This document shows positions 2,664 through 59,400 of a DNA stretch of 60,555 nucleotides, piece after piece; the stretch's first letter is position 1; every line of letters begins with the position of its first letter. The notes below the pieces were generated by a model. The model worked only from the letters and a program-made list of their open reading frames with translations, was not told the origin of the DNA and did no database searches. This DNA comes from a virus: IMG/VR virus record IMGVR_UViG_3300010400_000007, one strand, 5' to 3'. A program made the position numbers and the translations under genes.

Positions 2664-2664
2664 G

Positions 2665-35044: not shown

Positions 35045-35479
35045 TCAGCGGATGCGCTCGAACAGCTCGGGCGACGGCGGCGGCAGCCCCGATGGGCTCG
35101 GTGGAATCAGGCTCATGTGGGCGCGCGCGAGCGGCATCTTCGCTTCGACGGCGGCCTCGTCGATCAGCGGCTTGAGCTCGGGTGGCGCTTGGCTCTTCGC
35201 GACGGTCGTCGCGTGCTCGAGCTTGGCGCGCGACGTGTAGTTGAGTCCCTGCCGCGCAGCGTTGCGAGCGTATTCCTCGGCCGACCCGATCCCCGTCAGG
35301 ATGAACTGATCAACGAGCTTGAGCAGCGTCTCGTGGCTCTTGAGTCCCGCCGCCTCAGCCATCTTTCTTGCCGCTGCGCGGACGTAGAGTCGGACCTGCA
35401 GGCCCACGACGGTCAGCACCGCCAGCGTGAGTGCCAAGAGGGCTTGAACGACCTCGGGGGTCAGGATCGACTTCAGCAT
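35045..35479 (-). CDS. Membrane protein with N-terminal TM (holin candidate, LL-H-like layout)
   Basis: MLKSILTPEVVQALLALTLAVLTVVGLQV followed by a soluble tail. In the lysis cassette. Confidence 0.4.
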   Translation of the reverse strand: MLKSILTPEVVQALLALTLAVLTVVGLQVRLYVRAAARKMAEAAGLKSHETLLKLVDQFILTGIGSAEEYARNAARQGLNYTSRAKLEHATTVAKSQAPPELKPLIDEAAVEAKMPLARAHMSLIPPSPSGLPPPSPELFERIR

Positions 35480-35942
35480 GCTTCTCCCTCACGGGCACGG
35501 TTTGGTGCCCGCGCATGTCGTTGCGCAGCCCATCTGCCTCCGCCTGGGCGGCGAGCGCGAGCTTCTTCCACTTCTCGGCGTCCTGCTCCGCCTGGTCCTT
35601 GGCAGCGGCCAGTGCCCCCATGTCGTCGCCAAGGCCCCGGGCATTCTCGATCGCGGCGTCGCGTGCGACCTCGGCGCGCTCCGCGCGCTGCTTCGCGGCG
35701 GAGAGCTCGGCGCCGAGCTCGATCAGCTTCGCGTGCAGCGGCCCTTCGGCCGCCACCTGCTCGACCTCCTTCTCGCGCTCCGCCATGCGGTCGATCTCCT
35801 GCGCCGCGCGCTGGAACATCCTGGTCTTCAGCCGCTGAAGGAAGGGCCCCAGCGCTCTGCAGATCACGAGGATCAGCCCGCCGGCGAACCCGCCGATCCA
35901 CTCGGCCTTGATCCCCTGCAGGACGTGAATGATCCAGCTCAC
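35355..35942 (-). CDS. TM plus coiled-coil protein (i-spanin-like); 3' end overlaps the next gene by 125 nt
   Basis: N-terminal TM GGFAGGLILVICRALGPFL followed by an Ala/Glu/Arg coiled coil. The tail after residue ~150 is Arg/Gly/Pro-rich, out of frame with the 35045 gene. Confidence 0.45.
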   Translation of the reverse strand: MSWIIHVLQGIKAEWIGGFAGGLILVICRALGPFLQRLKTRMFQRAAQEIDRMAEREKEVEQVAAEGPLHAKLIELGAELSAAKQRAERAEVARDAAIENARGLGDDMGALAAAKDQAEQDAEKWKKLALAAQAEADGLRNDMRGHQTVPVREKHAEVDPDPRGRSSPLGTHAGGADRRGPAGPTLRPRSGKKDG

Positions 35943-35957
35943 AACCCTCGCGCCGGG

Positions 35958-36092
35958 CTACAACCCCCGGTAGATGCGGTGGCACGCCCTGCATCGGCAC
36001 ACCCAGGTGAAGAGGCCCGCCGGCTCAAGGCGCTGGCGCCTCCACGGCGGGTGCACGCCGAAGAAGCACAGCGCGCTCCTGAAGAAGCTCAC
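35958..36092 (-). CDS. Possible 44-aa protein coupled to the endolysin stop
   Basis: Hand translation VSFFRSALCFFGVHPPWRRQRLEPAGLFTWVCRCRACHRIYRGL. GTGA overlap. Not in the track (too short). Confidence 0.25.
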   Translation of the reverse strand: MSFFRSALCFFGVHPPWRRQRLEPAGLFTWVCRCRACHRIYRGL

Positions 36093-36553
36093 GCGAGCCT
36101 CGGCCAGCGAATCGCATCGATGGTCTCGCGCGCCCGGTGCGCAGCGCTAACGGCGTTGCCCTGGTTTCCGCCAAGCGCGAGCACGCGTGAGCCGTTCCAG
36201 CCGCCGCAAAGGGCCACGTGGCCGGTGCCGCGCGCATCCGGATCCGACTTGCCGAAGTAGAGCACCGCGCCCAGGCGCAGAGGGCTTGGATCACCCCACG
36301 TCTTCCAGCTGACGGCGCCCTTGTTCCGCGTGGACAAGATGCCCTGCTGCTCGAAGGCGGCGCAGAGGATGCTTGAGCACCAAGCGACCTCGTCGGGCGC
36401 TTCGCCGGCGGCCGTGAAGCTGTGATACCAGGTGATCCGCGGGTTGTGGCGCGTGCCCGCGATCTCGCGCTGCCCGAGCTCGCTGAGCATCCACTCGAGC
36501 CACGGCGGGCCCCAGCTGCCGAGCGCAGCGGTCGCAATATCAACCGGATGCAC
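36089..36553 (-). CDS. Endolysin candidate, NlpC/P60-CHAP-like (TIGR02594-like) cell-wall hydrolase
   Basis: PWLEWMLSELGQREIAG..HNPRI...EVAWCSSILCAAFEQ...GHVALCGGW shows a Cys/His catalytic pattern. GTG at 36553 is preferred over the upstream start. Confidence 0.6.
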   Translation of the reverse strand: MHPVDIATAALGSWGPPWLEWMLSELGQREIAGTRHNPRITWYHSFTAAGEAPDEVAWCSSILCAAFEQQGILSTRNKGAVSWKTWGDPSPLRLGAVLYFGKSDPDARGTGHVALCGGWNGSRVLALGGNQGNAVSAAHRARETIDAIRWPRLA

Positions 36554-36713
36554 GTTTTCGCTTTCTCGCACGCGCCCGTTGCTCGCGCGCGAGCAGGCTG
36601 CCGATGTGCGCATTGAGCTCGTCGACTGATGCCTTGTGGTCCTGCAGCGTCTGGTTGAACTGCAGGATCGCGTTCGTCAGCCGCGAGTAGATCTCCTTGT
36701 CCTCAGCGTTCAT
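36540..36713 (-). CDS. Small coiled-coil protein (57 aa) upstream of the endolysin
   Basis: MNAEDKEIYSRLTNAILQFNQTLQDHKASVDELNAHIGSLLAREQRARARKRKRASG. The rest of tracked ORF 36540..37142 is Arg-rich overlap. Confidence 0.45.
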   Translation of the reverse strand: MNAEDKEIYSRLTNAILQFNQTLQDHKASVDELNAHIGSLLAREQRARARKRKRASG

Positions 36714-38267: not shown

Positions 38268-38392
38268 GGAACAACTCCGTGGGTGCGAAGCAGCTAACAG
38301 CTGCGTCGAAAACTGCTCCCGCACACGTTTACGCGCCGCGCGCGGCGCCGATACCGTTCTCGTCGACGAACACGCAAGAAACGGAGCCCAAC

Positions 38393-38653
38393 ATGCTGGA
38401 CTGGATCATCGCATCGTGCCTTTTCCTGACCTCGCCCGGAGTGCTGCAGGTGCACGACGGCACTGGCACCTGCTACGAAGCGGACTTCGCCTCAGAAGGC
38501 ATGTCGATGTACGAAGCGGGAGCCGACTGGTGTGAGCAGTTCGACCCCGACGGCACTGGCGCATGGAACGGCATGTACTGGACGGGGACCGAGCAGAACG
38601 CCGGCGCGCTGCAATGCCCGTCCGGGTACATGTGCATCGGCTGCGAGTGGTGA
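38393..38653 (+). CDS. Small secreted Cys-rich protein, reverse-oriented moron in the late region
   Basis: ATG at 38393 after GGAG. MLDWIIASCLFLTSPGVLQ signal-like N-terminus, five further Cys, good GC3. Opposite strand to all flanking late genes. Confidence 0.55.
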   Translation: MLDWIIASCLFLTSPGVLQVHDGTGTCYEADFASEGMSMYEAGADWCEQFDPDGTGAWNGMYWTGTEQNAGALQCPSGYMCIGCEW

Positions 38654-38909: not shown

Positions 38910-40496
38910 CTATTGGACGTAGACCGAGCCCACGACCGTCGGGTTTGTCATCGACCCACCCCAGCCACCGGACCCGATCGCGGTGTTGAGCAAGGCCCAC
39001 GTGAAGTTGCGTGCGGCCTGTGCCGCGCCTGCCGAGTCGAACACGTAGCTGCTCGTCAGACCGGCAATTTGGATGTCCCCGCCGGTTGGCGCGCACGTGA
39101 TCGTGGATATGATGCCGGCCGTCACGCCGACGTGACAGGCGCGATCGAGCTCGAGGAGTTTCGCGGAAGTCGTGTTGCCTGCGCCCCATACCGCGCCGGT
39201 GATGCGACCGGTCGCGCGCCCGACGAACACAAAGATCTTGTTCGCCCCGGTCACCTTGCGAACGCAGCAGCCATCGATAAACCCTTGCGAGCCTTGCGCC
39301 ACGCCGGTGTACCCGACCTTGTCGAACACGGTGTCGAAGCGGAACGTGATGTCGCCGTGCGCGGTGATGCCCGTCGTGAAGGCAGTGCGGACCCAGCACG
39401 TATTCAGGAACGCGCGGGAGAAGAGCTCGTTGCCAAATAGAGCTCCCTGGTTCAGGAACTGGCAGCCGTTGTAATAGAGCGCGCCGCCGCAGTGGGACTG
39501 ACCGCTGCCCTCGACGATGCATCGATTGAACATGATGGACGCGTTGAGCGCCATCAGCCGGTTTTGGCCGGTCGTGCATTTGAGGTGCACGTCGCTGATC
39601 ACCAGCCCGCGGTTGCCCATCAGGTCCAGCGCAAAACCCCGGATGATCGAGGCGTGTGTGTACGTCGTGCCCGTCGCGCCACTGGTCGGATTCGCGACGC
39701 TCGTCTGCGTCGGAGCGACATTCACATCGCTCGTATCCACGGTCGTCCAGGGCATCATCGCTGCCTGGTTTGGGGACCCGCCGAGATCCTCCATGACCCA
39801 TGAATGCAGGTTTGCTGACGAGATCGCGAGCCGCCCGACTTCGTTCGCGGCCGTCCACGACGCGGAACTCACGTGGTCGACGTTCGTCGTGCGGTTGATG
39901 TTGGTGACGGTGGTCAGAGCGCCTGTGAACTGCGCGGTCAGCTTCCCCTTGATGTGTACGCGGTACGATTTCGTGGTGGCCGCTTGGCTCAGCACCCGGA
40001 TCATCAAGGGATCGTCCTCGGACGTCTCCCCGACGAAGGACCAGGTCTGATTCTGCCTGGGCGTGTAGTCCCGCCCGAGCCTGCGCGCCAGCTCGGTCCA
40101 CGACTTGATCGGGCCAACGAGGCCGCCACCAGCGGTGTCCTGAGACGCGTCCCATTCATCGTTGCCGATGTTTGCGTCCAGGTTGAGCGTCTGCGCGTAG
40201 GCCCAGCTCGGGTGCGGGAGGCAGAGGCGCTCCCAGCGCCAGTTGCTCCCGCTGGCGTGCGCGAGGACCTCATCCGCCTTCAAGGCAAGCGGGGAGCTTC
40301 GATTCGAGCTCGTGAAGTAGTCGCGGTACGACTTGACGAAGATCGTCAGGCCCTCGACGCTGTTGGTCAGCGCGCTGAGCGCCGCTCCGTTGGCCACAGG
40401 CGTCGAGATCAGCGCCTCGAGCGCGGCGATCCGGGCGACGTCGGCAGGCCCGTAGTCGATGTTGTCGTCGCCGAGTTTGACGCTTTGGAAGCCCAT
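38910..40496 (-). CDS. Tailspike/tail fiber protein with beta-helix-like C-terminal region
   Basis: ATG at 40496 (TAATG overlap). Gly/Thr/Asn/Cys-rich repetitive beta pattern (...NRCIVEGSGQSHCGGALYYNGCQFLNQG...) typical of pectate-lyase-fold spikes. Confidence 0.6.
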   Translation of the reverse strand: MGFQSVKLGDDNIDYGPADVARIAALEALISTPVANGAALSALTNSVEGLTIFVKSYRDYFTSSNRSSPLALKADEVLAHASGSNWRWERLCLPHPSWAYAQTLNLDANIGNDEWDASQDTAGGGLVGPIKSWTELARRLGRDYTPRQNQTWSFVGETSEDDPLMIRVLSQAATTKSYRVHIKGKLTAQFTGALTTVTNINRTTNVDHVSSASWTAANEVGRLAISSANLHSWVMEDLGGSPNQAAMMPWTTVDTSDVNVAPTQTSVANPTSGATGTTYTHASIIRGFALDLMGNRGLVISDVHLKCTTGQNRLMALNASIMFNRCIVEGSGQSHCGGALYYNGCQFLNQGALFGNELFSRAFLNTCWVRTAFTTGITAHGDITFRFDTVFDKVGYTGVAQGSQGFIDGCCVRKVTGANKIFVFVGRATGRITGAVWGAGNTTSAKLLELDRACHVGVTAGIISTITCAPTGGDIQIAGLTSSYVFDSAGAAQAARNFTWALLNTAIGSGGWGGSMTNPTVVGSVYVQ

Positions 40497-40831
40497 TAGG
40501 CGCTCTTCGCGTGCACGACGACGCGCATGGCGCCGGTCCCGCTCGAATAGACTTCGCGGATCCGATACCACCGCGAGCGCATGTTGCTGATCTCGATCAG
40601 CTGCTTGCCGGCAACGCCCGCGATCGACTCGAAGGTGACCTCCGACACGGTGACCCAGTCATCCGGAAACCCGACGGGATCGTCGTTGGCCTCCAGCGTC
40701 AGCACCGCCGCGACGGCGCCGTAGACGGCGTGGATCGAGGCGCCGTCGAACATCGTGAAGTCCATGCCCTGGCTGACAGCGGACTCTGCTTGGGCCTGGT
40801 CGAGGACCGCGCCTAAGTACCGGTAGCTCAT
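40496..40831 (-). CDS. Hypothetical tail-associated protein (111 aa)
   Basis: ATG at 40831 preceded by GGGAG. Confidence 0.5.
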   Translation of the reverse strand: MSYRYLGAVLDQAQAESAVSQGMDFTMFDGASIHAVYGAVAAVLTLEANDDPVGFPDDWVTVSEVTFESIAGVAGKQLIEISNMRSRWYRIREVYSSGTGAMRVVVHAKSA

Positions 40832-42585: not shown

Positions 42586-43770
42586 TCAGGCCGTCACCGG
42601 CACGGCAGTGATGGTCCACGTGCCCTCGATCACGAGGGCGAGCGTGCCCACGGAGAGCGTTGCGAACGAGGTCACGACCGTCTTCACGCCGTCGACGTCT
42701 TTGAGACGGTCGACCAGCTCCTCGCGGGTGACCACGTTCGCGGGCCCCGGCGAGTAGTCCCAGCCACCGATGGGCGTCACGCGCAAGAACTCGAGCAGCG
42801 CGGCGCGCCCGCGCGCGACGATGTCTGCGGGGTCTTGGTTCGGATCGTGATAGAGCGTCGCGGTCACGTCGAGCGCGACGGTCGGCGGATGCCGGTTCGC
42901 CACGCGCGAGAGGTTGCCCGGTGGCCAGGGATGGCTCCACGCAGAGTCGGTCTGGAACGCGCGCTCGCTGAAAGCCACCTGGATGGCCTGCATCGTCAGG
43001 TCGCCGAGCAGCGCCGTTTCCTCCGCACTGTAGACGTCGATGGTGCCCGCCCCGCGCGGGTTCGTATCGTTGACCTTGACCTTCTTCGCTCCGTGGTTGA
43101 GCGCGATGTTCTCGTACGACTCGGCCACGAGCTCCACCGTAAGGCTCGCCCACTTCGTCTCGTTCCTGCGCCGCAGGACCTCGTCTGACTGCTGGTCGGC
43201 GCCCGCGATCGAGTACCACGGTGTGCCCTGGTCGTTCGCGATGGTGACACCCGCGAGGGGCTTGAGCAGGCGCCGCACGCTGTTCAGCGGGACGTTCCCT
43301 TGCGCGCCGGCGACAAGCGCTTCGAAGTTGAGCACCAGCGTTGCTGGGCTCGCTACGCTGCCGGCGGGCAGCGTCTCTTGGTTGTCGTGGACGTTGCGGA
43401 ACTGCACGCCCGCGTCCGTCGATGCGATCAGGCTGCCGGGGTCGATCGTGTAGGGGATCGAGGCGGTTGAGCGCAGGGTCATGGGGCCGCTCGTCCGGAC
43501 GGCTCGCACCACCTCGTTTTGAAACCGGCTCCGCGAATACTCGTGGAGGGCGTCCCCGCTCGCATAGACGTTCGAGCCAAACTCGACGATGGCCTTGACC
43601 ACCTCGGTGAGGTCGCTGAAAACGACCGCGAACATGTTGAACCAGGTCTTTTGAACGCGCCCGTCCTGCCAGCCGGTCGTATCGAACCCGAGCGCGGTCA
43701 GGAGCTCCGTGATCCGCGTGGCTGCCTCCGCGCGCGTGAGGGGCTTGCGCAGCTGCGCGATGGTGAGCAT
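42586..43770 (-). CDS. Baseplate J-like protein (Mu gp47 / P2 gpJ family)
   Basis: 394 aa. Position between the W-like and gp48-like genes. Composition is typical of J-family wedge proteins. Confidence 0.65.
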   Translation of the reverse strand: MLTIAQLRKPLTRAEAATRITELLTALGFDTTGWQDGRVQKTWFNMFAVVFSDLTEVVKAIVEFGSNVYASGDALHEYSRSRFQNEVVRAVRTSGPMTLRSTASIPYTIDPGSLIASTDAGVQFRNVHDNQETLPAGSVASPATLVLNFEALVAGAQGNVPLNSVRRLLKPLAGVTIANDQGTPWYSIAGADQQSDEVLRRRNETKWASLTVELVAESYENIALNHGAKKVKVNDTNPRGAGTIDVYSAEETALLGDLTMQAIQVAFSERAFQTDSAWSHPWPPGNLSRVANRHPPTVALDVTATLYHDPNQDPADIVARGRAALLEFLRVTPIGGWDYSPGPANVVTREELVDRLKDVDGVKTVVTSFATLSVGTLALVIEGTWTITAVPVTA

Positions 43771-44193
43771 TCAGGCCGCCTCTTGGAAAATCTCGACGCC
43801 GTCGATCAGCGCCTGCACCGTGAGCTCGCTCGCGACGATCGTCAGATCGAAGGGTCCGTCGCCATCCACCACGGCAATGTCGGTTGTCAGCCTGCCGTTG
43901 TCGAAGCTGACTGAGCAGCTCGCGTCCTCGACTTCTTCCTCCTCTAGCACCTGCTCGAGGACGCGCTGCTCCACCGCGCTCGGGGGCACGGTTGAGCCGA
44001 TCACAGACAGCAAATCGTAGCCGTATTTGGGCGCGCCGATGAGGCCGCCACGCGGCGTCGTCAGCCGGCGCAGAATCTGGTTCGCCAGCGCGCGCCTACC
44101 CGTGGCTGTCGAAAGCGCATAGTCGACCGACAGCACGCCCGCGAAGTCGGAGCCCAGCGGGAACGCGCGCGGCGCAGTAGGGTTGAGTGGCAC
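43771..44193 (-). CDS. Baseplate wedge protein (gp25/GPW/XkdS-like)
   Basis: GRRALANQILRRLTTPRGGLIGAPKYGYDLLSVIG matches the ALxQxIxxRLxTxxGE..P.YG pattern. Confidence 0.6.
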   Translation of the reverse strand: MPLNPTAPRAFPLGSDFAGVLSVDYALSTATGRRALANQILRRLTTPRGGLIGAPKYGYDLLSVIGSTVPPSAVEQRVLEQVLEEEEVEDASCSVSFDNGRLTTDIAVVDGDGPFDLTIVASELTVQALIDGVEIFQEAA

Positions 44194-44196
44194 GTC

Positions 44197-44712
44197 TCAG
44201 CTCTTCAGCACGGTGTGGAGCGCATTGATGGTGGCGCCGTCGTTCGCGAGCAGCACCGAGCCGGCGATCATCTCGTTCGGTCCGGCGCCGCCGGGTAGCC
44301 CGCCTACCAGCAGCGCGCCGAGCTCGGCGCCGAGCTGGCCGGCCTGGCCGGCGAACAGGTAGTAATGCACGCCGGGCGCGCCAAGCAGCTGGCCGAAGCC
44401 GAGCGAGAACGCAAGCCCGCCGGCAAGCTGCGCTGCCTGCGCTTGCAGATCGACCAGGGCCGCCGTCGTCGCGCCCGCGTCGGGAAGCGGCGCCGCGAGC
44501 AGCTGGTTGAGCGCAGCGAGCGTGGCCGTCACGCCCGCGATCAGGTCGGCGAGCGATGGCGGCGGCTGCACGCTGAGCGCAAGCAGCCCCGAAATCCGCG
44601 CCTGGATGTCGGGCAGCGCCAGACCGACAGCGTCGCCGAGCGCGAGCTGCGCGCTCAGCGCCATCGGAACCGCCTGGCCCAGTGTAAGCGAGCCAGCATA
44701 GGTCACGGTCAT
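44197..44712 (-). CDS. Hypothetical baseplate-region protein (171 aa, Ala/Leu/Gly-rich)
   Basis: Continuous ORF in the late operon. Function unknown. Confidence 0.45.
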   Translation of the reverse strand: MTVTYAGSLTLGQAVPMALSAQLALGDAVGLALPDIQARISGLLALSVQPPPSLADLIAGVTATLAALNQLLAAPLPDAGATTAALVDLQAQAAQLAGGLAFSLGFGQLLGAPGVHYYLFAGQAGQLGAELGALLVGGLPGGAGPNEMIAGSVLLANDGATINALHTVLKS

Positions 44713-44786
44713 CTGTGCATGACCTCACGGTTGTGGCTGATTTCGCTCAACCCCAAACGGGCCGGGTCCGTAGAATTGATATACCA

Positions 44787-45776
44787 ATGAAACACGCCGT
44801 AGTGATAGCTGGCCTTGCTCTGCTCCTCGGATGCGAGCCTCCGACCCATGCCGACGCAACCCTCGATCAGCCCTACGACGACGAGGCCGACGCGACCGCT
44901 GGCGGCAGCCACGCCGGCGGCGACGGCGGTACATCCGGCACCTCGACCACCGATGGTGGCGTGGGCGGAGACGCGGATGGCGCTGTGCAGGGCGACGCGG
45001 CGAGCGCGAGCGGCGACGGGGGCCTGACGAACATGGGATCCGATGCGGATCCCGGCACCGCGGGTGATGCCGGCGCAAGCACGCGTCAGTGGCCGCGGTG
45101 CGACCAGGTGAGTGCGTGCGCTGCGCTCGATGGCCCCTGCTCTGCGGCGTGGGGCAGCGAGTGCGGCTCGGTCAGCATGGGGGGCTTCTCGTGCGGCGAC
45201 GCGACGCAGTCGGCCTCGGGATTCCACTTCAGCGACGGGACGTCCTTCGCCTGCGTAGGCTCCGACTGCGCGGCAGCTTCGCAGTCTGCCGCGCAGCACT
45301 GCGCCGCGGTCATGACCAGCGGCGGCGGGGGCGGCGGCACGGGTGGCGGCGGCAGCATGCAACCGACGTCCGTGTGGTCGAAGCGCCACGAGACGACATC
45401 GAACCTCGGTGCGGTCGCGACGCAGGCCTACCACCGCGCGCGCTTCTCGCTCGACCTTCAGGCTGACGCAGCGTGCAGCGTGAACGTCGACTCGCCGATG
45501 CTGCCGACCGGGTACACGGGCACGACGACGCTCGCGCTGAGCTCCGCGCAGCAAGCGTGTCTCAAGCAGACCGCGAATTGCGCGAAGCCGGTCAAGGTCC
45601 AGTGGGGTTCGTGCGGCAGCGCGAGCTGCGGCGAGCTCGAGACCGGTCCGGTCTGGGAGACCGCGCGCCCTGGCTGCTCCGTTACGATGCCCGCGGGCGC
45701 GTTCTCGCTTCGTCTGACGATCGCTCGGCTCGGCGCGGGCGGGCTCGACGAAACCTGGGAGGTCATCTCGCCATGA
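44787..45776 (+). CDS. Predicted lipoprotein, Gly/Asp-rich linker plus Cys-rich domains; reverse-oriented moron gene 1
   Basis: MKHAVVIAGLALLLGC has lipobox LLGC. AT-richer upstream region. 20 Cys in the mature part. Opposite strand to the flanking baseplate genes. Confidence 0.65.
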   Translation: MKHAVVIAGLALLLGCEPPTHADATLDQPYDDEADATAGGSHAGGDGGTSGTSTTDGGVGGDADGAVQGDAASASGDGGLTNMGSDADPGTAGDAGASTRQWPRCDQVSACAALDGPCSAAWGSECGSVSMGGFSCGDATQSASGFHFSDGTSFACVGSDCAAASQSAAQHCAAVMTSGGGGGGTGGGGSMQPTSVWSKRHETTSNLGAVATQAYHRARFSLDLQADAACSVNVDSPMLPTGYTGTTTLALSSAQQACLKQTANCAKPVKVQWGSCGSASCGELETGPVWETARPGCSVTMPAGAFSLRLTIARLGAGGLDETWEVISP

Positions 45777-46333
45777 AGCAGATGATGATCCTCGCAGCTG
45801 TTCTGCTGGTGGTGGCACGCGCCGGCGCCGAGCCCCCCAAGTGGCAGAACGAAGCCACCGCCGCAACCTGTGCCAAGAGCTTCCCCGAAAGGCTCACCGA
45901 CTTCCGTGAGGGCGTCGTCGCGCAACAGCGCTACATGGCCGAGTACAACCGCGTGATCCCCTGGTTCCAGGAGCACTGCCGCTGGCTCTCCACGCGCGAG
46001 ATCGCCATCCGGAAGCTCGACGATCCCGCCGCGTTCGTGTGCGACACCCGCCGAGGCCGCCCGAAGGAGCTCTCGAGCGAGTTCGCCCTGAGCCATGACT
46101 CGCCGCGCGACATCGCCACCTTCATCGAGCATTCCGAGGTGAACCGGTGGTGCGGCCCGTTCGATCGAGCTTCGCGCATCTCGCTCGAGCTCGCTCAGGC
46201 TGAGCAGCCCGAGGTCGAGGCGCGCATCGTGCTCGAGGTGATGTGCTGGCACGTCGAAAGCCCCAAGTGCGACCGGGCACGTGCTGCGCTCGCAGGCGCT
46301 CGCGGTCCCGGCGATGCTCGTCGCGACGAGTAA
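45773..46333 (+). CDS. Secreted protein (signal peptide), reverse-oriented moron gene 2
   Basis: MKQMMILAAVLLVVARAGA|EPP. ATGA coupling to the lipoprotein gene. Diverse composition and high GC3. The antisense ORF 45458..46363 was rejected. Confidence 0.65.
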   Translation: MKQMMILAAVLLVVARAGAEPPKWQNEATAATCAKSFPERLTDFREGVVAQQRYMAEYNRVIPWFQEHCRWLSTREIAIRKLDDPAAFVCDTRRGRPKELSSEFALSHDSPRDIATFIEHSEVNRWCGPFDRASRISLELAQAEQPEVEARIVLEVMCWHVESPKCDRARAALAGARGPGDARRDE

Positions 46334-46378
46334 CAGGCATATCCAGAGCAATCGATTTCGCATGGTCGTCTCCTGGGC

Positions 46379-46915
46379 CTACGCTTTGACGCGCGCGGCT
46401 CCTCCAAAAACGCGCCCACGCACAGGCGCGCCGAGTGTCGCAAACCCCGTGAACTGCGTCCCGGGCGCGAGCGGCGTCGGGATCGTGGGCGGGGGGGGGC
46501 TCGGGTTGGTCGCTTGAACGATCCCCGTGATCACGCCCGAGATGGGCGCCGCGGGCGAGAGATAGAGTTCGATCAGGTCGCCGTTGCGCGCCACGCCCGC
46601 GGCGCCACCGTCGAGCGAGACCACCGCGCTGCCCTGCTCGTAAGCCCACGCCACGATCCTCGGCTTGCGCGGGTCGCCGTCGGCGAACGAGAGCAGCCCA
46701 CGCGTCCCCGGCTCCACACGCGAGCTCGTGCCAGCGGGGCTCGCCAGCACAGGCACGCGCTGCAGGCCTTGGCCGCGGAGCTCGACCGCGTCCGCCAGGA
46801 CGTCCACCGTGCCGTCGTCGTGTTGGGCCTGCACCTCAACGCCGTACGACCGCAGATACACCGCGTCGCCGAGAACGGCGCGGACGATGCGCTCGATCGC
46901 GGCACGCGGGTCCAT
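46379..46915 (-). CDS. Baseplate spike/hub protein, gpV / Mu gp45-like, paralog 2
   Basis: MDPRAAIERIVRAVLG...LLSFADGDPRKPRIV...GGAARVKA. Shares these blocks with the adjacent paralog. Carries an extra Pro-rich insertion. Confidence 0.6.
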   Translation of the reverse strand: MDPRAAIERIVRAVLGDAVYLRSYGVEVQAQHDDGTVDVLADAVELRGQGLQRVPVLASPAGTSSRVEPGTRGLLSFADGDPRKPRIVAWAYEQGSAVVSLDGGAAGVARNGDLIELYLSPAAPISGVITGIVQATNPSPPPPTIPTPLAPGTQFTGFATLGAPVRGRVFGGAARVKA

Positions 46916-47397
46916 CAGGCCTTGACCCGTGCGGCGCCCGACTGAATCGTGCCCGAGCTCTGCGTCCCGATCGTGAGGGTGCCGGTGATCGCCCCGCTGA
47001 CGGGCCCCACCAGCGTCCCCGTGAACGGCACGGTCGCGGGCCAGCTGCAGACGACCACATCGCCCACGCGCGCCACGCTGGCAGCCCCACCATCGAAGGC
47101 CAGCTCCTCGATGCTCCCGCGGTGCCAGAGGGACGCGTAGGGCTTGCGCGGGTCGCCGTCGGCGAAGCCGAGCAGCACACGCGAGCCCGTCACGACACGC
47201 ACACTGACGCCCGGCAGCCCGTGCCGGATCGGCACCCGGGAGAGCCCCGTGCCGCGCACGCGCTCGTCGTCGGGCAGAAGATCGAGGGTCTGGTCCCCGT
47301 GGTCGCGCTCGACCGTGCATTCGAAGTTGCGCAGGTAGAGCGGATCGTGCCCCACGACCGCGCGGATGATCCGCTCGAGCGCCGCGCGCGGCTCCAC
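46915..47397 (-). CDS. Baseplate spike/hub protein, gpV / Mu gp45-like, paralog 1
   Basis: MEPRAALERIIRAVVG...LLGFADGDPRKPYAS...SGAARVKA. OB-fold gpV-type pattern. Confidence 0.6.
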   Translation of the reverse strand: MEPRAALERIIRAVVGHDPLYLRNFECTVERDHGDQTLDLLPDDERVRGTGLSRVPIRHGLPGVSVRVVTGSRVLLGFADGDPRKPYASLWHRGSIEELAFDGGAASVARVGDVVVCSWPATVPFTGTLVGPVSGAITGTLTIGTQSSGTIQSGAARVKA

Positions 47398-48407: not shown

Positions 48408-48988
48408 CAGAAGCCGCTACCGGGGATGTCGCCTTCGGAGAAGTTGGGCTCCTCGCCCGACGTGAAGTTGGCCTGTGCGGCGCCCTGGCGCGATGGGCGC
48501 AATGCATCGATGAGCGGCTGGACGTTCCAGTCCTCAGGCTCGCCGCTCTCGGGCTTGGCCGCCGGCTTCTTGACCTTCGCCGGCGTGTCGACGTGCTCGT
48601 ACGCGGAGAACTTCAGGACGAACGAGCCGCCCGGAGCCGGCTGCGGCGACGACACCTGCCGGATCTTGATGACATTGACCCCCCAGAGCCGGGCATTGGG
48701 GTGTCCGATCTCGAGCGGCTTGCGCGCGCTGTTCGCCGCGCGCGGCCGCAGCAGGTCGATCCGACGCTCGAGCTCCGGCATCTCCTCGGCCAGCACCTCG
48801 ATCTCGATGTCGAGCTCGGCCGGCGGCACACCGACGTCGCGGATACGCGCCTTCTTCCCGCCGCGCGGCTTGTGCACCTCGAGCCCGCTCGGCAGCTGGA
48901 TCTCGACGCGCGCCACCCCCGGCATGCGCTTGCCGCCGAGGAACAGGACCTCCCAGTCCTCCCCGGTGATCCAGCTCGGAACCGGCAT
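48407..48988 (-). CDS. Hypothetical tail protein (193 aa)
   Basis: Immediately downstream of the tape measure gene, with coupled start and stop. Confidence 0.55.
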   Translation of the reverse strand: MPVPSWITGEDWEVLFLGGKRMPGVARVEIQLPSGLEVHKPRGGKKARIRDVGVPPAELDIEIEVLAEEMPELERRIDLLRPRAANSARKPLEIGHPNARLWGVNVIKIRQVSSPQPAPGGSFVLKFSAYEHVDTPAKVKKPAAKPESGEPEDWNVQPLIDALRPSRQGAAQANFTSGEEPNFSEGDIPGSGF

Positions 48989-50835
48989 CAGACCTCCAGC
49001 GCCAGCTGCCGAAAGAAGGACTCGAACTCGCGCCGTGCCTCGCGCGCTGCGATCCGCCCGACCTCCTCAGCGTCGCCGCCACCGTGGATCTCCTGGTGCA
49101 GGGTGACGTTGATGTCGCCACGCGGGCCCCCGCCGTCGAACCCGCCCGCCCCCATCGAGGACATGGGCGGTCCGAACGCTGGACCGAAACCGGCTTCCAT
49201 CCCGCCGAGGCTGGCCGTCGCCATGCTGCGGCCGGAGGCCTCGACGCGGCGCTCCTCGCGCCCGACGCCCAGCGCGAGGCCGCGCCCCACGTTGCCGCCG
49301 ATCGCCATCGTCACGCGAGACGGCGAGTGGATGTTGAAGATGTCCTTGAGCGCGCCAAGCGCCTTGCTGCCAACGCTTGCGAGCGTGTCCGCCGGCAGGT
49401 TCACCAGCGACCACATGCCGTTGGCAAGGCCTGTGACGACGGCCTTGCCGATGCCGAGCGCCTTCTCCCCCAGCGTCAAGCCCGCGCTGTTGAACACGCC
49501 TGCGACGTTCTCAAACCAAACGAAGATGTCCGCCGAGATCTTGGCCAGCGGGTTGATGATGCCCTCGAGCAGCGACTTGCCGATCGAGAAGATCGGGCCC
49601 GCGATGGCGCCGAGGGCCGTGCCCACCAGCGAGATTCCGGTGGCCGCTGCCACCGTGAAGGCGGCCAGGTCGCCCAGCGAACGCCCCAGCGCCTTCGCAG
49701 CGCTGTCGCCCCCCGAGAACAGCCCGAAGAGCTCAAACATTGGTTTGACGTTGCTCTCAAACGTCTTGCCGAAGGCCGCCGCGAACGAGTCGGCGAGCAC
49801 GCCTGCGAACTCTGCGGCGCGTCCGAGCCCATCGGCGATCCGGGAGATCGTCGCAGCGCCCTCGGGACTGCCGAGGAACTTCTCGAGCGCATCGAGGCCG
49901 CGCCCGGTCATGGCCGTGAGCGGCGCCGTGACCTTGTCGACGAGGCTGATGCCCGCATCCTGCCCGAGCGACTTGATGCGGTTCAGCATCCCCGTGAACG
50001 TGGTGTCCGCGAACTTCGCGCCCGACTGGCCGAGCGAGCTCTGGCCGAGCTTGCGGTTGATGGCCTGTTCGATTGCCTGGAGGCCGACGTCGGCGCTGAT
50101 CTTGCCAGCTTGCTGGAGCTTCTGGACCTGGTCGCGCGTCTTGCCGCCGAGGATCTTGCCGATCTCCTCCTGCACCAGCACGGTCGAGATGCCGCGCTCG
50201 GCGAGCTGCAGCATCTCCTCGCCCTGCAGCCTGCCCTTGCCCTTGATCTGGCCGAGCGCGAGGAAGACACCCTTGACGTCCTCGGCGCTGTTGCCGAGCG
50301 CCTGCAGGTCCGCGCCCATGCGGATCAGGTTGTCCGCCGCCTTCGGCGAGAACTGCAGCGCGAGGAACTTCTTGTATTGGTCGGTGGTGTCGAGGACGTC
50401 GAGACCGAACCGCACCGCGAGCGCGCGGGCGTGCTCGAAGAGCTTCTCCGGCATCGCGCCGTGCTTGGTGAGGTTCCCTAGCGCGAGCCGCGAGTTTTGC
50501 CCGAATGCAACGAGCTCGAACGTGGCGCCGGCGACCTCCTTGGCGAACCCGGCGACCCGCCCGATCGCCATGGTCATCAGGTTGCCGCCGAAGATACTCA
50601 GCGCGCCGATCGAGCCTCCGCCACCAGCTTTGCCCATCCCTGCGACGAAGCGACCGTTCGCCTCGCGCATCCGCCCAGTGGCATCGCGGAAGCGACCGCT
50701 CGTCTTCGAGGCAGCGTCCGTCGTACGCGCGAAGCGCCCCGCCGCATTACTAACGCGGCCGAGCGCTTTCTCGACATCCTTTGCGCCCTTCGTGTTGCCG
50801 AGGACACGGACGGTGAAGTCAGCACCAGCACCCAT
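48988..50835 (-). CDS. Tail tape measure protein
   Basis: 615 aa, Gly/Ala-rich. Tape-measure domain GQIKGKGRLQGEEMLQLAERGI...QKLQQAGKISADVGLQAIEQAI. Follows the chaperone genes. Confidence 0.85.
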   Translation of the reverse strand: MGAGADFTVRVLGNTKGAKDVEKALGRVSNAAGRFARTTDAASKTSGRFRDATGRMREANGRFVAGMGKAGGGGSIGALSIFGGNLMTMAIGRVAGFAKEVAGATFELVAFGQNSRLALGNLTKHGAMPEKLFEHARALAVRFGLDVLDTTDQYKKFLALQFSPKAADNLIRMGADLQALGNSAEDVKGVFLALGQIKGKGRLQGEEMLQLAERGISTVLVQEEIGKILGGKTRDQVQKLQQAGKISADVGLQAIEQAINRKLGQSSLGQSGAKFADTTFTGMLNRIKSLGQDAGISLVDKVTAPLTAMTGRGLDALEKFLGSPEGAATISRIADGLGRAAEFAGVLADSFAAAFGKTFESNVKPMFELFGLFSGGDSAAKALGRSLGDLAAFTVAAATGISLVGTALGAIAGPIFSIGKSLLEGIINPLAKISADIFVWFENVAGVFNSAGLTLGEKALGIGKAVVTGLANGMWSLVNLPADTLASVGSKALGALKDIFNIHSPSRVTMAIGGNVGRGLALGVGREERRVEASGRSMATASLGGMEAGFGPAFGPPMSSMGAGGFDGGGPRGDINVTLHQEIHGGGDAEEVGRIAAREARREFESFFRQLALEV

Positions 50836-51846: not shown

Positions 51847-53640
51847 TCACGCCGCCGCCGGCAGCGCGACCACGAACCCGACGCTTGTCGTCGCATAGTC
51901 GACCGATTGGTACGGCAGGATGCCGACCTCGCCGATCACGACGCCGGTGGCGAGAAAGTTGTGCGTCCGCGAGATGCGGTAGCGGATGTCCTGCACGTAC
52001 CCAGCAAACCCCTCCGCATTGACGGGTGTGCCGAGCTGGGCGACGAGATCGGCCGAGATGGCGTCCTCGATGATCGTCGCGTCCCTGTCGTCGATGACTC
52101 CGGGATACTCGACGTCGTCGATCACGACCGTTTCGGTGCGCGTGAGGCGCCCGATCTCGCGCGTCAGCCCGCGGTTGACGGTCTCGCAGGCGATGTCCAT
52201 CACGATGCCGCGCGGCCACTGCGTGAAGTCGCTCCCGTCGGGCGACTTCAACCGGCCCTGCGTGATGTAGAACCCGTTGAAGTTCTCGTAGGTGCGCAGG
52301 GTCGAGACCTTGATGTCGTCGAGGTTGCTCGGCGCTCGGTACTCGTCGTGGAAGATCTTCACGACCTCCGCGAGCGGCCCGCTCTTCACCCGCTTGAGGT
52401 CGGTGCTCGGGAGGCTCGCCGCGGCGCGCGCCGCGAAGACGTCCGCGGCGTTGGTCACCGGGAAAGCGTGCCCGCTGAACGGCTTCACGGAGGTGCGCCG
52501 CACCTGGCCGTGCGCGACCAGCAGCCGGATCGCGGTCACGTCGTCCCAGGCCGCGACGACCGCAGACGCGCTGTCCTCGTGGGTCGCAGCGATGATGCCG
52601 CGACGGTACTTGGATGTGTTCGCGAGCGTGGTCAGCTGCGACTGCAGCGCGGCGCCCAGGAGCGCGTGGGCCGTCGCGTCGCCGTTGCCCTTGCTGGTCA
52701 CGAACTGAACGAAGCGCCAGCGCGTCGGGCTCGCCGCGATCGCCGTGAACGCCGCGGCCAGGTTGGTCGCGTTGGCCGCCGCGCATTTGACCGAGCAGAG
52801 ATAGCTGTCGCCTGCCGCGAAGGCGGTGGGCGTGTCGTCGAAGTTGAGGGTCAGCCCGAGGCCTGGGATGGTGAACGTGCCCCCCGCGGGCACGAAGAGC
52901 GTTTCGCTGTACGTGCGCTCGGCCTCCGTATCGCCGACGTAGCCATCGAGGCTGTAGCGGAAGCGCGCCACGCCGTTCGCCCCGCTCGTCATGACTTCGA
53001 CCCGCACCAGCGCATCGAGGGTCGGCGTGCCCGAGACCGCGAGCACGCCCCCGCCGGCCGTGGTCGTGAAGTCGTAGGTGGCGTTGAGGACGTAGTTGCC
53101 CGCCGGGAATGTGACGGTCACGCCCGTGGTCACGCCCGTCGCGCTGAGCACGTAGGTGTTGCCCGTGGGGGTGGGGATCGCGGACGCGACCCAGGTCGTG
53201 CCGCCGTCGATCGACCAGCGGAACGCGCTGGTGCCGAGCACGCCCGCGGTCGTGATCTGGATGCGTACGTTGTAGTGCCCCGTCGGGTCGGTGCCGGCTG
53301 CCGTGACCGTCGGCCCGCCGCCCGTGTTCGTGACCGAGCTGAGCGAGCCATCGGCGCCGTAGGTGGGCTGGACCTCGCCCCGCGCGGCGGCGATGCTCGC
53401 GGTCATCTTCAGGAAGCCGATGGGCCCGCCGCCCTGGCTCAGGATCTCGGCGCCCGCCTCGACGGCGGGGCCCTCGCCGGCTTCGTCGCGCAGCGTGGTG
53501 GGCGAGGAATAGAGCAGGAGCTCGTTCGCCGCGATCGCGCCGCTGCACACGCCGATCACCAGCGCCATCATCGACGCGGGCTGGCTGATCCCCAGGCCGA
53601 AGTCGCGGACGTTCTCGGTAGCGCTCGGGATCGCAGCCAT
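51847..53640 (-). CDS. Contractile tail sheath protein with an internally duplicated beta domain
   Basis: 597 aa at the canonical position. Duplicated segments ...VRIQITTAGVLGTSAFRWSIDGGTTW... and ...VRVEVMTSGANGVARFRYSLDGYVG... Conserved-looking C-terminal core. Confidence 0.7.
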   Translation of the reverse strand: MAAIPSATENVRDFGLGISQPASMMALVIGVCSGAIAANELLLYSSPTTLRDEAGEGPAVEAGAEILSQGGGPIGFLKMTASIAAARGEVQPTYGADGSLSSVTNTGGGPTVTAAGTDPTGHYNVRIQITTAGVLGTSAFRWSIDGGTTWVASAIPTPTGNTYVLSATGVTTGVTVTFPAGNYVLNATYDFTTTAGGGVLAVSGTPTLDALVRVEVMTSGANGVARFRYSLDGYVGDTEAERTYSETLFVPAGGTFTIPGLGLTLNFDDTPTAFAAGDSYLCSVKCAAANATNLAAAFTAIAASPTRWRFVQFVTSKGNGDATAHALLGAALQSQLTTLANTSKYRRGIIAATHEDSASAVVAAWDDVTAIRLLVAHGQVRRTSVKPFSGHAFPVTNAADVFAARAAASLPSTDLKRVKSGPLAEVVKIFHDEYRAPSNLDDIKVSTLRTYENFNGFYITQGRLKSPDGSDFTQWPRGIVMDIACETVNRGLTREIGRLTRTETVVIDDVEYPGVIDDRDATIIEDAISADLVAQLGTPVNAEGFAGYVQDIRYRISRTHNFLATGVVIGEVGILPYQSVDYATTSVGFVVALPAAA

Positions 53641-56823: not shown

Positions 56824-57699
56824 TCAGTTCGTGACGATCTTGACGATGCCGGGCTTGGTGCCGGCGCCGCGGATGCGCTTGTACCGGTGCGCAGCCCAGT
56901 ACATGTGGATCGCGACCACGTCCGTGTCGGCCAACGGGTCGAAGCCCACACGCACGCGCGGCGTACCCTGATACCAGAAGGCCAGCGCGGCGCGCTTGGC
57001 GATGATCGAGGTGTACTTCGGGGGCGTATCGGTGCTCTTCGCGTTCTTGTCGGACACGGTCACGGGGACGCCCGCGAACCTCGTCACGGAGCCATCGGCG
57101 GGGTCGGTCAGCAACGGGCGGTTGGTCGTGTCTTTGAACTTCAGCAGATCCCCGTAGACCTTGCTGTGAGTGCCCAAGAGCACGATGTCGTTTTGCTCGT
57201 CCCCCCACTTCAGGCGCGCGTCGACCATTTGATCGTAGCCCAGGGTCACCGGGCTGCCCGAGTTGTACACGTCGTGGATGTAGTCCGACGGCAGCGAGGC
57301 CATCGCCGCATCGAGAAGCGCCTTGTCGACGCGGCGCTCCACCAGCTCGCGGAACTGGCGCGCGACCTCCGCGTACGGATCTGCGTATTGCGCGGCCAGT
57401 TGTGCCCACATCGTGAGCTCGACGGCCTTGCCCGAGTGCCGCGTAACCGCGGTCTCCTCGCTCATGCTGAGCACCTCGGGCGTCAGGGCATCGCCCTCGG
57501 TGTCGATGTCTTCCATCTCGCCGAGTGCGTTGAAGTAAGGGACCGTGACGGTTTTCCCGCCCTTGATATTGGCGGGGAGCGTCCCGCTGATCACAGCCGC
57601 ACCGGTCCCGGCGAGGAGGCGCATGCCGGCGAACTCCGCTTGGATCGCCTCGGTCAAAATCTCCGGGACGACAAGATCCGTCGACAACGTTGTGCCCAT
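56824..57699 (-). CDS. Major capsid protein (HK97-fold type)
   Basis: 291 aa directly after the protease/scaffold gene. Composition and length are typical. Confidence 0.8.
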   Translation of the reverse strand: MGTTLSTDLVVPEILTEAIQAEFAGMRLLAGTGAAVISGTLPANIKGGKTVTVPYFNALGEMEDIDTEGDALTPEVLSMSEETAVTRHSGKAVELTMWAQLAAQYADPYAEVARQFRELVERRVDKALLDAAMASLPSDYIHDVYNSGSPVTLGYDQMVDARLKWGDEQNDIVLLGTHSKVYGDLLKFKDTTNRPLLTDPADGSVTRFAGVPVTVSDKNAKSTDTPPKYTSIIAKRAALAFWYQGTPRVRVGFDPLADTDVVAIHMYWAAHRYKRIRGAGTKPGIVKIVTN

Positions 57700-57702
57700 G
57701 TC

Positions 57703-58956
57703 CTAGTTCCTCCCGCCCGTGGCGTGCTGGGCCGGGCGAGCGCCAGGCCGGTGGTTCTTGCGCATCTCCTCGAAGAGCTCGCTGTTCTTTGCCTTGAGAT
57801 CGGCGCGCTCCTGGAACGAGAGCTCCGCGTAGGTCTTGCCGTTCCACCGCAGTTCCGTGGCCCCCGCAGCCAGCGGCGAAGGCGCGGGCTGCTTCTTGTC
57901 CCCGCTGAGCGCCGCGATCGGACTCAGGTTCTCGATCCACTTCTCGGCGCCCTTGAGCGTGACATCGCCGGCCGCGACCTGGTCGCGGACCTCCTTCTCG
58001 AGGTGCGGCGTCAGCTTGTTCTCGGCCTTGCCCTTCGCGATCAGCGTCTCGAGCGTGCTCGCCTGCATGCTCTTCTCGAGCGCGACGTTCTGCTCCTTCA
58101 CCTTGGGCAGCTCGGTGTGCGAGCCCTGCCACGCCTTCAGCGTGCCGATGGCTTCCTCGCCGGTGGCGCCGAGAATCGCCTCGATGCGGGTCAACAGCGC
58201 GAGACGCGCGGACGTCGTGGGGTCTTCAGCCATGGTCCTCTCCTCGTCGGCGCTTTGATCCTCGCCGCTGGTCTGCGCCCGGATCCGTCCGGGTACCGAA
58301 ATCTCCGATCGCGCCTGGGCAACCGCTGCGAGCAAGCCCGCGGGGACATGCACCAGGTCGCTCAGGTCGAGGCCCGCGAGCGCCTTCGCCTTGCTCGCGC
58401 CCTTCTTTGCAGGCTTCACCTTGTCGACGAAGCCCTTCTCCTTGGCCTCGTTCGGGGTCATCCAGGTCTCGGCGTCCATCATCGCCAGGACCTCGTCGCG
58501 GCCGATGCCCGTGCGCGCCATGTAGGCCGCAGCGATCTGGTCGCGCATCTTGTCGAGCAGGTCCGCCGTCGCGCGCATCTCGTCGGACTCGCCGAGCGCC
58601 AACCCCCACGGGTTGTGGATCATGACGAAGCCGTTTGATGCGATGCGGATCTCGTCGGCCGCCATCAAGATCACGCTCGCCATGCTCGCGGCGAGCGCGT
58701 CGACGTCGGCCTCGACGCGCGCGGGGTGCTCGTTCAGCAGGTTGTAGATCGCGAACCCGTCGATGACATCGCCGCCGCGGCTGTTCACGCGCAGCTTGAT
58801 CGTCGAGGCGTTTTTCGCCTCCTTGAGGCGCGCGCGCACGCTCTTCGCCGACACGCCTTCGCGCCACCAGCTCTCGCCGATCACGTCGTAGATGTCGATC
58901 TCGAGCGTCTCCGAGCCCTCGCCCCGGAGCGCAAACGTCCATCGCGGATTCGACAT
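57703..58956 (-). CDS. ClpP-like (S14) head maturation protease fused to a scaffold-like C-terminal half
   Basis: INSRGGDVIDGFAIYNLL...ALAASMASVILMAADEIRIASNGFVMIHNPWG shows the Ser/His catalytic pattern. The C-terminus is helical and Ala/Glu/Lys-rich. Confidence 0.8.
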   Translation of the reverse strand: MSNPRWTFALRGEGSETLEIDIYDVIGESWWREGVSAKSVRARLKEAKNASTIKLRVNSRGGDVIDGFAIYNLLNEHPARVEADVDALAASMASVILMAADEIRIASNGFVMIHNPWGLALGESDEMRATADLLDKMRDQIAAAYMARTGIGRDEVLAMMDAETWMTPNEAKEKGFVDKVKPAKKGASKAKALAGLDLSDLVHVPAGLLAAVAQARSEISVPGRIRAQTSGEDQSADEERTMAEDPTTSARLALLTRIEAILGATGEEAIGTLKAWQGSHTELPKVKEQNVALEKSMQASTLETLIAKGKAENKLTPHLEKEVRDQVAAGDVTLKGAEKWIENLSPIAALSGDKKQPAPSPLAAGATELRWNGKTYAELSFQERADLKAKNSELFEEMRKNHRPGARPAQHATGGRN

Positions 58957-58965
58957 GGATGGACC

Positions 58966-59241
58966 TCAGCCCGCGTCGGCTTCGGGGGCGGGCTGGCCGC
59001 TCGCCGCGGGCGTGAAGTCGACGTACACCTCGCCGCCGAGTTCGAACTCGGCAACCGCCTCGGGCTTGACGCAAGTCAGCGAGATCTGTCCTCCAGGCGT
59101 CGCTTGCCAAAACTTCGAGTTCTCGCTGTTGGGATCGCTCCCCTGGTAGACGGCGGACAGCTTCACCGTCTGCACCTCCTGACCGTTGCCCCACTTCGAA
59201 CGCTCGATGCTGTCGACCTTGAACTTGGCTCGGACGGTCAT
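58966..59241 (-). CDS. Hypothetical head-module protein (91 aa)
   Basis: ATG at 59241 after CAGGAGAG. MTVRAKFKVDSIERSKWGNGQEVQTVKLSAVYQG... Confidence 0.55.
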   Translation of the reverse strand: MTVRAKFKVDSIERSKWGNGQEVQTVKLSAVYQGSDPNSENSKFWQATPGGQISLTCVKPEAVAEFELGGEVYVDFTPAASGQPAPEADAG

Positions 59242-59267
59242 GGTGCTCTCCTGATGGGAATGCGGAC

Positions 59268-59293
59268 GCCCCGGGGAGGCGCCTCCCCGGGGC
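59268..59293. repeat. Perfect 26-bp palindrome GCCCCGGGGAGGCGCCTCCCCGGGGC
   Basis: Read directly. Lies in the 160-nt gap between the 59401 gene and the capsid-assembly genes. A second small palindrome CTAGTgACTAG is at 59321..59331. Confidence 0.85.
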
Positions 59294-59400
59294 TTAGACA
59301 ACCGCGTGCCCGCAGCGTGGCTAGTGACTAGCGCCGCCAGGTCGTGACCCGGAAGCTCCTCACCACGCCGCACCTTCTCTTTTTTGGTGTAGCTGCCCGC

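Follow-up and report, generated by a model that had tools for sequence, protein, structure and literature searches.

Two orphan families of exported proteins as independent accessory modules in the baseplate region of a putative temperate myovirus

What do two genes for exported proteins do inside the baseplate region of a phage, on the strand opposite to the tail genes on both sides? The question is raised by positions 44787 to 46333 of IMG/VR virus record IMGVR_UViG_3300010400_000007, a stretch of 60,555 nucleotides (nt) that was analysed over its whole length and is called the window below. The segment holds two plus-strand open reading frames (ORFs): ORF A (44787-45776, 329 amino acids, aa), with the signals of a lipoprotein, and ORF B (45773-46333, 186 aa), with those of a secreted protein. 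They belong to two orphan families of exported proteins, and they are independent accessory modules in a common hot spot, not an obligate pair. We favour, with a probability of about 45%, the reading that this is an accessory-gene (moron) hot spot in the baseplate operon of a temperate myovirus clade, with envelope-targeted and independently mobile genes whose most likely function would be superinfection exclusion.

Two real genes and their exported products

ORF A and ORF B are real genes under purifying selection. The GC content at third codon positions (GC3), taken in the plus frames, was 0.83 for ORF A and 0.84 for ORF B, close to the flanking genes (0.82-0.91), whereas the two long antisense ORFs gave 0.74 and 0.64. 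In comparison with homologous loci, the changes in both genes clustered at third codon positions, many of the altered codons were synonymous, and the antisense frames were interrupted by stops in homologues of the cassette. GC3 and these stops ruled out the antisense 301-aa and 385-aa ORFs as genes. An earlier note on this DNA had described a plus-strand two-gene cassette with good coding statistics for both genes and poor ones for the antisense 301-aa ORF; its coordinates were exact and its view of the coding potential held. The same is true of the ATGA by which it coupled the lipoprotein gene to the signal-peptide gene (overlap at 45773-45776), of the AT-richer leader upstream of the lipoprotein gene (54% GC over the 70 nt before the ATG, 44717-44786, against 69% for the window), and of the export signals on both products. 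All parts of the ORF A layout that it had named, a Gly/Asp/Thr-rich linker, two Cys-rich regions, and a poly-Gly hinge, could be located (Table 1). As it had stated, the flanking tail genes all run on the minus strand, and the cassette faces against the late operon.

The opening residues of ORF A read MKHAVVIAGLALLLGC, and its N-terminal sequence MKHAVVIAGLALLLG leads into a lipobox with Cys at position 16 (C16), which matches a PS51257-type pattern. This pattern was satisfied by 12 of the 15 ORF A family proteins that were checked. Lys at position +2 is an inner-membrane retention signal in M. xanthus (PMC3222651). No member of the ORF A family has this residue, and sorting to the outer membrane is therefore probable. 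Outer-membrane lipoproteins typically have an N-terminal linker that is long and disordered (bioRxiv 10.1101/2021.01.05.425367), and nearly all ORF A members have a common layout of lipobox, long variable low-complexity tether, and a C-terminal domain of ~140 aa in which six Cys are invariant (C230, C258, C265, C276, C281, and C297 in ORF A). The tether differed in both length and sequence across the family, and 9 of the 14 differences between ORF A and its 96% identical relative P0001 were located within it rather than in the domains. The 8-Cys module that follows the tether was missing in P0002 and P0018, and it recurred in P0023 and P0027 with identical Cys spacing, which indicates an optional domain.

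Relatives of ORF A formed three clusters in a word-indexed search and 16 representative clusters in an exhaustive hidden Markov model search of 1.84 billion proteins. A metagenome scan with the C-terminal-domain alignment gave no confirmed relative, and P0022, P0027, and P0025 retrieved nothing from viral contigs. Pfam gave a single match for the family members, Trypan_PARP in one of them, which reflected its Pro/Glu-rich linker. The search of the region for tandem repeats detected the run of Gly codons only. The AlphaFold model of the C-terminal domain had a predicted local distance difference test (pLDDT) score of 77 and consisted of beta strands with two short helices, for which a beta-sandwich is predicted. 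Foldseek of this model against the PDB gave generic beta-sandwich or C2-like structures only, with template modelling (TM) scores of at most 0.42 (0.41 for the best one, which was C2-like) and none at E<=0.001, and sequence and profile searches of the PDB with the C-terminal domain and the 8-Cys module found no relative.

ORF B begins with a type I signal peptide, MKQMMILAAVLLVVARAGA, which would be cut before EPP at an AxA site, and has 15 homologous clusters. The type I signal peptide is common to all full-length members, as are six Cys in the mature protein, and the alignment shows an invariant core of CRxL..E.AIRK.DD...FVC....GRP. The AlphaFold model was mainly helical, with a pLDDT of 83 and a predicted TM score (pTM) of 0.71. 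In Foldseek searches of the PDB and BFVD its best E-values were about 2-4, with nothing at E<1, and the sequence profile had no match in the PDB.

Neither ORF A nor ORF B gave a meaningful match in Pfam, PHROGs, PADLOC, or NCBIfam, the same held for family members and relatives in Pfam and NCBIfam, and tblastn of both against 50,697 deposited phage genomes gave no match. The earlier note could not assign the proteins to a known family and had proposed structure and homology searches. With these now run for both, PDB sequence searches and Foldseek (PDB, and BFVD for ORF B) included, no known family was matched, and the two proteins represent two orphan families.

Occupancy of the spot in related phages

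The locus was compared in ten related phage contigs with a common tail module. The tail-module proteins (tape measure, 119-aa and 217-aa proteins, spike-like, 171-aa, gp25-like, and Baseplate_J) were mostly 41-80% identical, and the 171-aa gene, which was 52-64% identical in most related loci, adjoined the cassette. An A-type lipoprotein gene followed by ORF B was present in the window, in L001 (identical to L002 and L003), in L015, and in L004. In L010, ORF B stood behind a different lipobox protein with the metzincin motif HExxHxxGxxH. ORF B was alone in L007 and L009, and an A-family lipoprotein was alone in L023, L026, and L024, in the last of these one gene further along. L025 carried a solitary A-family lipoprotein at a different spot of the tail module, between the baseplate and fibre blocks and directly before the latter. 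In the distant relative L022 the spot was empty: the 171-aa homologue directly abutted the preceding gene, with no reverse-strand insert.

All four close homologues of ORF A (49-96% identity) had ORF B behind them, and the ATGA junction was found at every locus where ORF B had an upstream partner (window, L001, L004, and L010). The ORF B of L010 retained 56% identity in spite of its unrelated partner. Each of the eight ORF A family contexts was reverse-oriented within a baseplate/fibre module. Among the relatives, identity was 29-52% for the ORF A C-terminal domain and 45-64% for ORF B. Both diverge faster than the flanking structural proteins (mostly 44-80% identical), as expected for proteins that interact with a host or a phage.

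ORF B was also observed away from the tail module. It lay next to the integrase in L005 and L018, directly upstream of a terminase-like gene in L017 (labelled from its N-terminal sequence and gene order only), and on the short L011 contig with Usp and CBS genes. In L012, a Polyangiales metagenome-assembled genome (MAG; DASVHQ010000009.1, 9106-10459), a 211-aa homologue with a signal peptide lay directly downstream of a Fic/Doc-family gene. Positions beside integrase, terminase, and Fic/Doc genes are typical of a mobile accessory gene. The neighbouring ORFs in L012 resemble mobile-element genes, as judged by reading their sequences. When 185,579 species-representative genomes were searched with the ORF B family, the sole match was a Polyangiales MAG, and the Baseplate_J protein of the window had a distant match to Myxococcus phage Mx4. 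From these two matches and the GC content, the uncultured host is probably a soil myxobacterium of the Polyangiales (Myxococcota).

As ORF A and ORF B are each found without the other, they are not an obligate pair, and we describe them as independent accessory modules in a common hot spot. The remaining cargo was also varied. In L007, a P22_AR_N antirepressor-like gene (8638-9417, minus strand) lay at the baseplate hot spot beside the solitary ORF B, which indicates that the site takes varied accessory cargo. The L010 partner (5851-6462, plus strand) is a small lipobox protein with the full metzincin motif and weak matches to Peptidase_M10 and to the myxosortase-dependent MXAN_2677/2678 family of metalloproteases. 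A guess that the L015 gene facing ORF B convergently encodes a lytic transglycosylase was dropped, as Pfam gave it no support.

Expression, function, and competing explanations

With the cassette facing the late operon, neither ORF A nor ORF B can be expressed by late transcription, which has to cross the cassette antisense to reach the baseplate genes downstream. A −10-like hexamer, TAGAAT, was found at 44771-44776, 10 nt before the ORF A ATG; it is rare, with only two occurrences in the 60.5 kb. L001 and L015 also have this hexamer, at 17 nt before the ATG, and related A/T-containing hexamers were located 6-17 nt upstream of the starts in several other loci. No Shine-Dalgarno sequence was seen at ORF A or at most of the corresponding starts in the relatives. 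The hexamer and the absent Shine-Dalgarno sequence together suggest a dedicated promoter that would give a near-leaderless transcript. For ORF B, GGGAGG (45755-45760) lies 12 nt upstream of the start, inside the codons for ...ETWEV of ORF A. The ETWEV motif is conserved and encodes this Shine-Dalgarno-like sequence, so it may be under a dual constraint. ORF B overlapped the 3' end of the convergent gene in several relatives. The one terminator-like site in the scan was on the minus strand, and Rfam gave chance sub-threshold matches only.

If the favoured reading is right, transcription would start from TAGAAT and yield an essentially leaderless bicistronic messenger RNA, possibly from the repressed prophage. 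After export and lipidation at Cys16, ORF A would go to the outer membrane, where the acidic, disordered tether of ~90 residues, the 8-Cys module, and the Gly hinge would hold out a disulfide-stabilised beta-sandwich. ORF B would be translated through the ATGA coupling, exported by Sec, cleaved after Ala19, and folded in the periplasm (or beyond) into a compact, helical shape, probably with three disulfides. Each protein may bind an envelope component or a part of an incoming phage and so block adsorption or DNA entry of superinfecting phages; as an alternative benefit, progeny could be kept from loss on cell debris. The two would act independently or additively and not as an obligate complex. 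Superinfection exclusion appears the most likely function from the linkage of all eight ORF A family contexts to baseplate/fibre modules, the fast divergence, and the following precedents.

Morons in tail operons have HK97 gene 15 as their prototype (PMC3594210). The resemblance lies in extra genes between tail genes that are adjacent in the relative L022, in content that varies among close relatives, in envelope-bound products, in a temperate phage, and in the presence of ORF B at classic moron positions, e.g., beside an integrase. In contrast, the cassette runs opposite to the operon, has two genes, and shows neither a recognisable terminator nor a GC deviation. Its products also differ, as gp15 is a small inner-membrane protein, whereas here a large tethered lipoprotein and a periplasmic protein are encoded, with no gp15/YebO homology.

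The exclusion lipoproteins Cor and Llp of T5 are small proteins that jam TonB-dependent transporters from the periplasmic face, and their genes lie next to, and just downstream of, receptor-binding genes; Llp has a Cys11-Cys58 disulphide (PMC9586334). ORF A is likewise a phage lipoprotein, disulfide-containing and probably in the outer membrane, encoded in the region of the adsorption apparatus, and its family is tail-linked throughout. However, mature ORF A has 313 aa with a tether of ~90 aa and extra modules. Its gene lies between spike-like and baseplate genes with the fibre-like gene ~4 kb away, only the L025 copy stands directly before a fibre block, and neither co-variation with fibres nor sequence or fold similarity to these proteins was observed. 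T4 Sp (Spackle) and TP-J34 Ltp block phage entry from the periplasm or membrane. ORF B resembles them as a small, exported, helical protein with predicted disulfides beside tail-tip genes, and it is conserved with the injection machinery (tape measure and spike-like genes) rather than with fibres. It differs in the lack of a fold match and in its presence in phages with other tails and in a bacterial genome. A description of Ltp is given in PMC3952083.

Several results weigh against superinfection exclusion by a moron-type cassette. The family, PDB, and BFVD searches revealed no resemblance in sequence or fold to Llp, Cor, Sp, gp15, or Ltp. Whether a phage has ORF A does not depend on its fibre type, as L004 keeps an ORF A-type gene with a different fibre set, and ORF B, too, is retained where the fibres differ; both observations speak against a plain masking of the receptor that the phage itself uses. 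The missing co-variation of ORF A with fibres fits better with a block at a conserved step, e.g., penetration or DNA entry, or with a role that has nothing to do with phages. The metzincin-motif partner in L010 hints that the cargo of the site may serve other envelope functions. A sigma-70 consensus scan of the region gave no full promoter, and no hairpin or T-run was found for the plus strand in 46334-46480, after ORF B. The GC content of the cassette (0.66-0.73) was not different from that of its neighbours (0.64-0.73). With no GC deviation and no terminator, two classic moron hallmarks are missing.

Part of this evidence would suit a generic lysogenic conversion unrelated to exclusion, such as adhesion, matrix, predation via outer-membrane vesicles, or stress tolerance, with the tail module as a tolerated insertion site. 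The diverse cargo, with the metzincin-motif lipoprotein of L010 and the antirepressor-like gene of L007, is in line with it, as is the distance of ORF B from tail genes in L005, L012, and L017. ORF A of the window also has Ala at +7, which is a matrix-lipoprotein signal in M. xanthus (PMC3222651), but this residue is not conserved in the family. The placement of all eight ORF A family contexts in baseplate/fibre modules points to a phage-linked role, and Pfam, NCBIfam, and Foldseek against the PDB showed no similarity to a known adhesin or enzyme. With the metzincin-motif cargo of L010 in view, generic conversion, although unlikely, is a rival to be taken seriously. An obligate two-component envelope system acting as one complex, e.g., with ORF B loading or activating ORF A, is improbable. 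The earlier note had proposed a two-component cassette, and the ATGA overlap wherever ORF B has an upstream partner, together with ORF B behind all four close ORF A homologues, would agree with this. The claim did not survive the comparison of loci, where ORF B occurs alone (L007 and L009) or in other contexts (L005, L012, and L017), stays 56% identical behind a completely different lipoprotein (L010), and A-family genes stand by themselves (L023-L026).

The SitA/SitI and SitB lipoprotein toxin cassettes are carried on Mx-alpha prophage-like elements of myxobacteria (PMC5562445, PMC8546572), and a similar kin-discrimination cassette would make ORF A or the L010 type a lipoprotein toxin passed on by outer-membrane exchange and ORF B its periplasmic immunity protein. 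Points in common are the probable myxobacterial host and a tightly coupled small gene behind that of an outer-membrane lipoprotein whose C-terminal part varies, both on a prophage; in addition, the upstream lipoprotein can be swapped, 'orphan' ORF B genes exist, and SitB has a type I signal peptide, as has one partner here. However, SitA C-terminal domains are cytoplasm-acting nucleases, SitI has no signal peptide, and the N-terminal region is conserved among SitA proteins (PMC5562445). In ORF A the C-terminal domain instead has six invariant Cys, as for a fold of an oxidising compartment, and no match to a nuclease or toxin family; ORF B is exported with a cleavable signal peptide, and the N-terminal regions of the ORF A and L010 types differ, with no common SitA-type region. 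ORF B does not co-vary with its partner and is conserved while the 'toxin' changes its fold, which is the opposite of cognate immunity, and four A-family genes stand without a gene behind them, which in the case of a toxin would kill the carrier. We therefore find a SitA-like cassette quite improbable. The least credible proposal is a function in lysis or in the virion, as a two-component spanin or as structural baseplate proteins, which is very improbable in spite of the superficial likeness of a lipoprotein plus a second envelope protein to Rz1/Rz and the position among structural genes. Two-component spanins consist of an i-spanin with an N-terminal anchor and a periplasmic coiled coil and an o-spanin that is a small lipoprotein, and they are expressed late from the lysis cassette. 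ORF A is far larger than typical o-spanins. The signal peptide of ORF B (19 aa) is cleavable and leaves no membrane anchor, and the protein is globular and Cys-rich, not a coiled coil. The window has a separate, probable lysis cluster at 35045-36613, the cassette is opposite to the late operon, and either gene can be absent in relatives. For virion proteins, export by Sec/Lol is incompatible with virion assembly in the cytoplasm.

Outside the genus Myxococcus, the phages of myxobacteria, those of Polyangiales included, have hardly been studied (bioRxiv 10.64898/2026.09.14.751636), and no envelope-targeted genes for conversion or exclusion are known from them. Tail-operon morons for envelope proteins are of a known kind; new are the two orphan families, the architecture, and the mix-and-match behaviour. 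The locus gives candidates for the remodelling of the envelope by prophages in social, predatory bacteria. If exclusion is true, the few known entry blockers would be joined by two proteins with new folds, and it may be asked whether outer-membrane exchange spreads phage protection among kin. It is a highly speculative extension that a new class of long-tethered outer-membrane lipoproteins and a new periplasmic protein block phage entry in myxobacteria, with ORF A passed to non-lysogenic kin via TraAB-dependent outer-membrane exchange; phage protection at the level of the group would then be encoded by a phage. If exclusion is false, the locus nonetheless shows clearly how accessory-gene modules turn over within a tail operon.

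Neighbouring genes and the phage genome

The features of the cassette and of the phage are collected in Table 1. The earlier note had placed the cassette between baseplate spike and wedge genes; the placement among tail genes stands, and the identity of the 'spike' is tentative. The two spike-like genes are tandem paralogues, 46% identical, with the N-termini MDPRAAIERIV and MEPRAALERII, and related phages have one to three copies. Their label was given from position and weak matches only, to DUF6484 (E=0.01-0.025), phrog_2103 (E=0.048), and VgrG chain 6sjl (E=0.2).

Table 1. Coordinates of the cassette parts, flanking genes, and other genes of the window.
Feature	Position	Strand	Remarks
Mu-type portal	987-2663	−	
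Large terminase	2665-4002	−	
Integrase-like gene	26504-28036		
Holin-like small membrane protein	35045-35479	−	sequence reading only
i-spanin-like protein	35355-35942	−	N-terminal transmembrane segment and coiled coil; sequence reading only
Tail-lysozyme/CHAP-like gene	36089-36613	−	phrog_1259, E=2e-18
Putative tail-fibre-like gene	38910-40571	−	
Baseplate_J gene	42586-43770	−	
gp25/sheath-initiator-like gene	43771-44193	−	
Conserved 171-aa baseplate-module gene	44197-44712	−	left flank, divergent from ORF A
Divergent intergenic leader	44713-44786	+	between 171-aa gene and ORF A
ORF A signal peptide and lipobox	44787-44834	+	+2 residue Glu
ORF A acidic low-complexity tether	44835-45095	+	residues 17-103; 20 Gly, 15 Ala, 14 Asp, 10 Thr, 1 Lys/Arg
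ORF A optional 8-Cys module	45096-45311	+	residues 104-175
ORF A poly-Gly hinge	45312-45365	+	residues 176-193, 10 Gly; GCG/GGC repeat 45319-45354
ORF A C-terminal domain	45366-45776	+	residues 194-329 and stop codon; six invariant Cys in family alignment
ORF B type I signal peptide	45773-45829	+	
ORF B mature protein	45830-46333	+	residues 20-186 and stop codon; mainly helical (model), six conserved Cys
183-aa spike-like paralogue	46379-46930	−	right flank, convergent with ORF B across a 45-nt gap
Second spike-like paralogue	46915-47397	−	
Tape measure	48988-50835	−	
DUF2586 protein	51847-53640		in sheath position
Protein with ClpP-protease domain	57703-58956	−	

The window looks like a whole temperate myovirus of ~60 kb. 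The terminase and portal genes lie at its low end (987-4002), and the head protease and the genes that follow it lie at the high end (56824-60455), all on the minus strand. As these genes are at opposite ends, the window seems to be a circularly permuted, complete or nearly complete genome. The minus-strand genes at 35045-36613 are a probable lysis cluster, apart from the cassette.

A second reverse-oriented ORF was observed at 38279-38653 on the plus strand (124 aa, GC3 0.79). It has no Pfam match and does not satisfy the strict lipobox pattern. Read from an internal Met, it begins with MLDWIIASC... and continues into a Cys-rich tail of ~70 aa. This ORF lies just beyond the 3' end of the fibre gene (38910-40571), which is the classic position of Cor and Llp.

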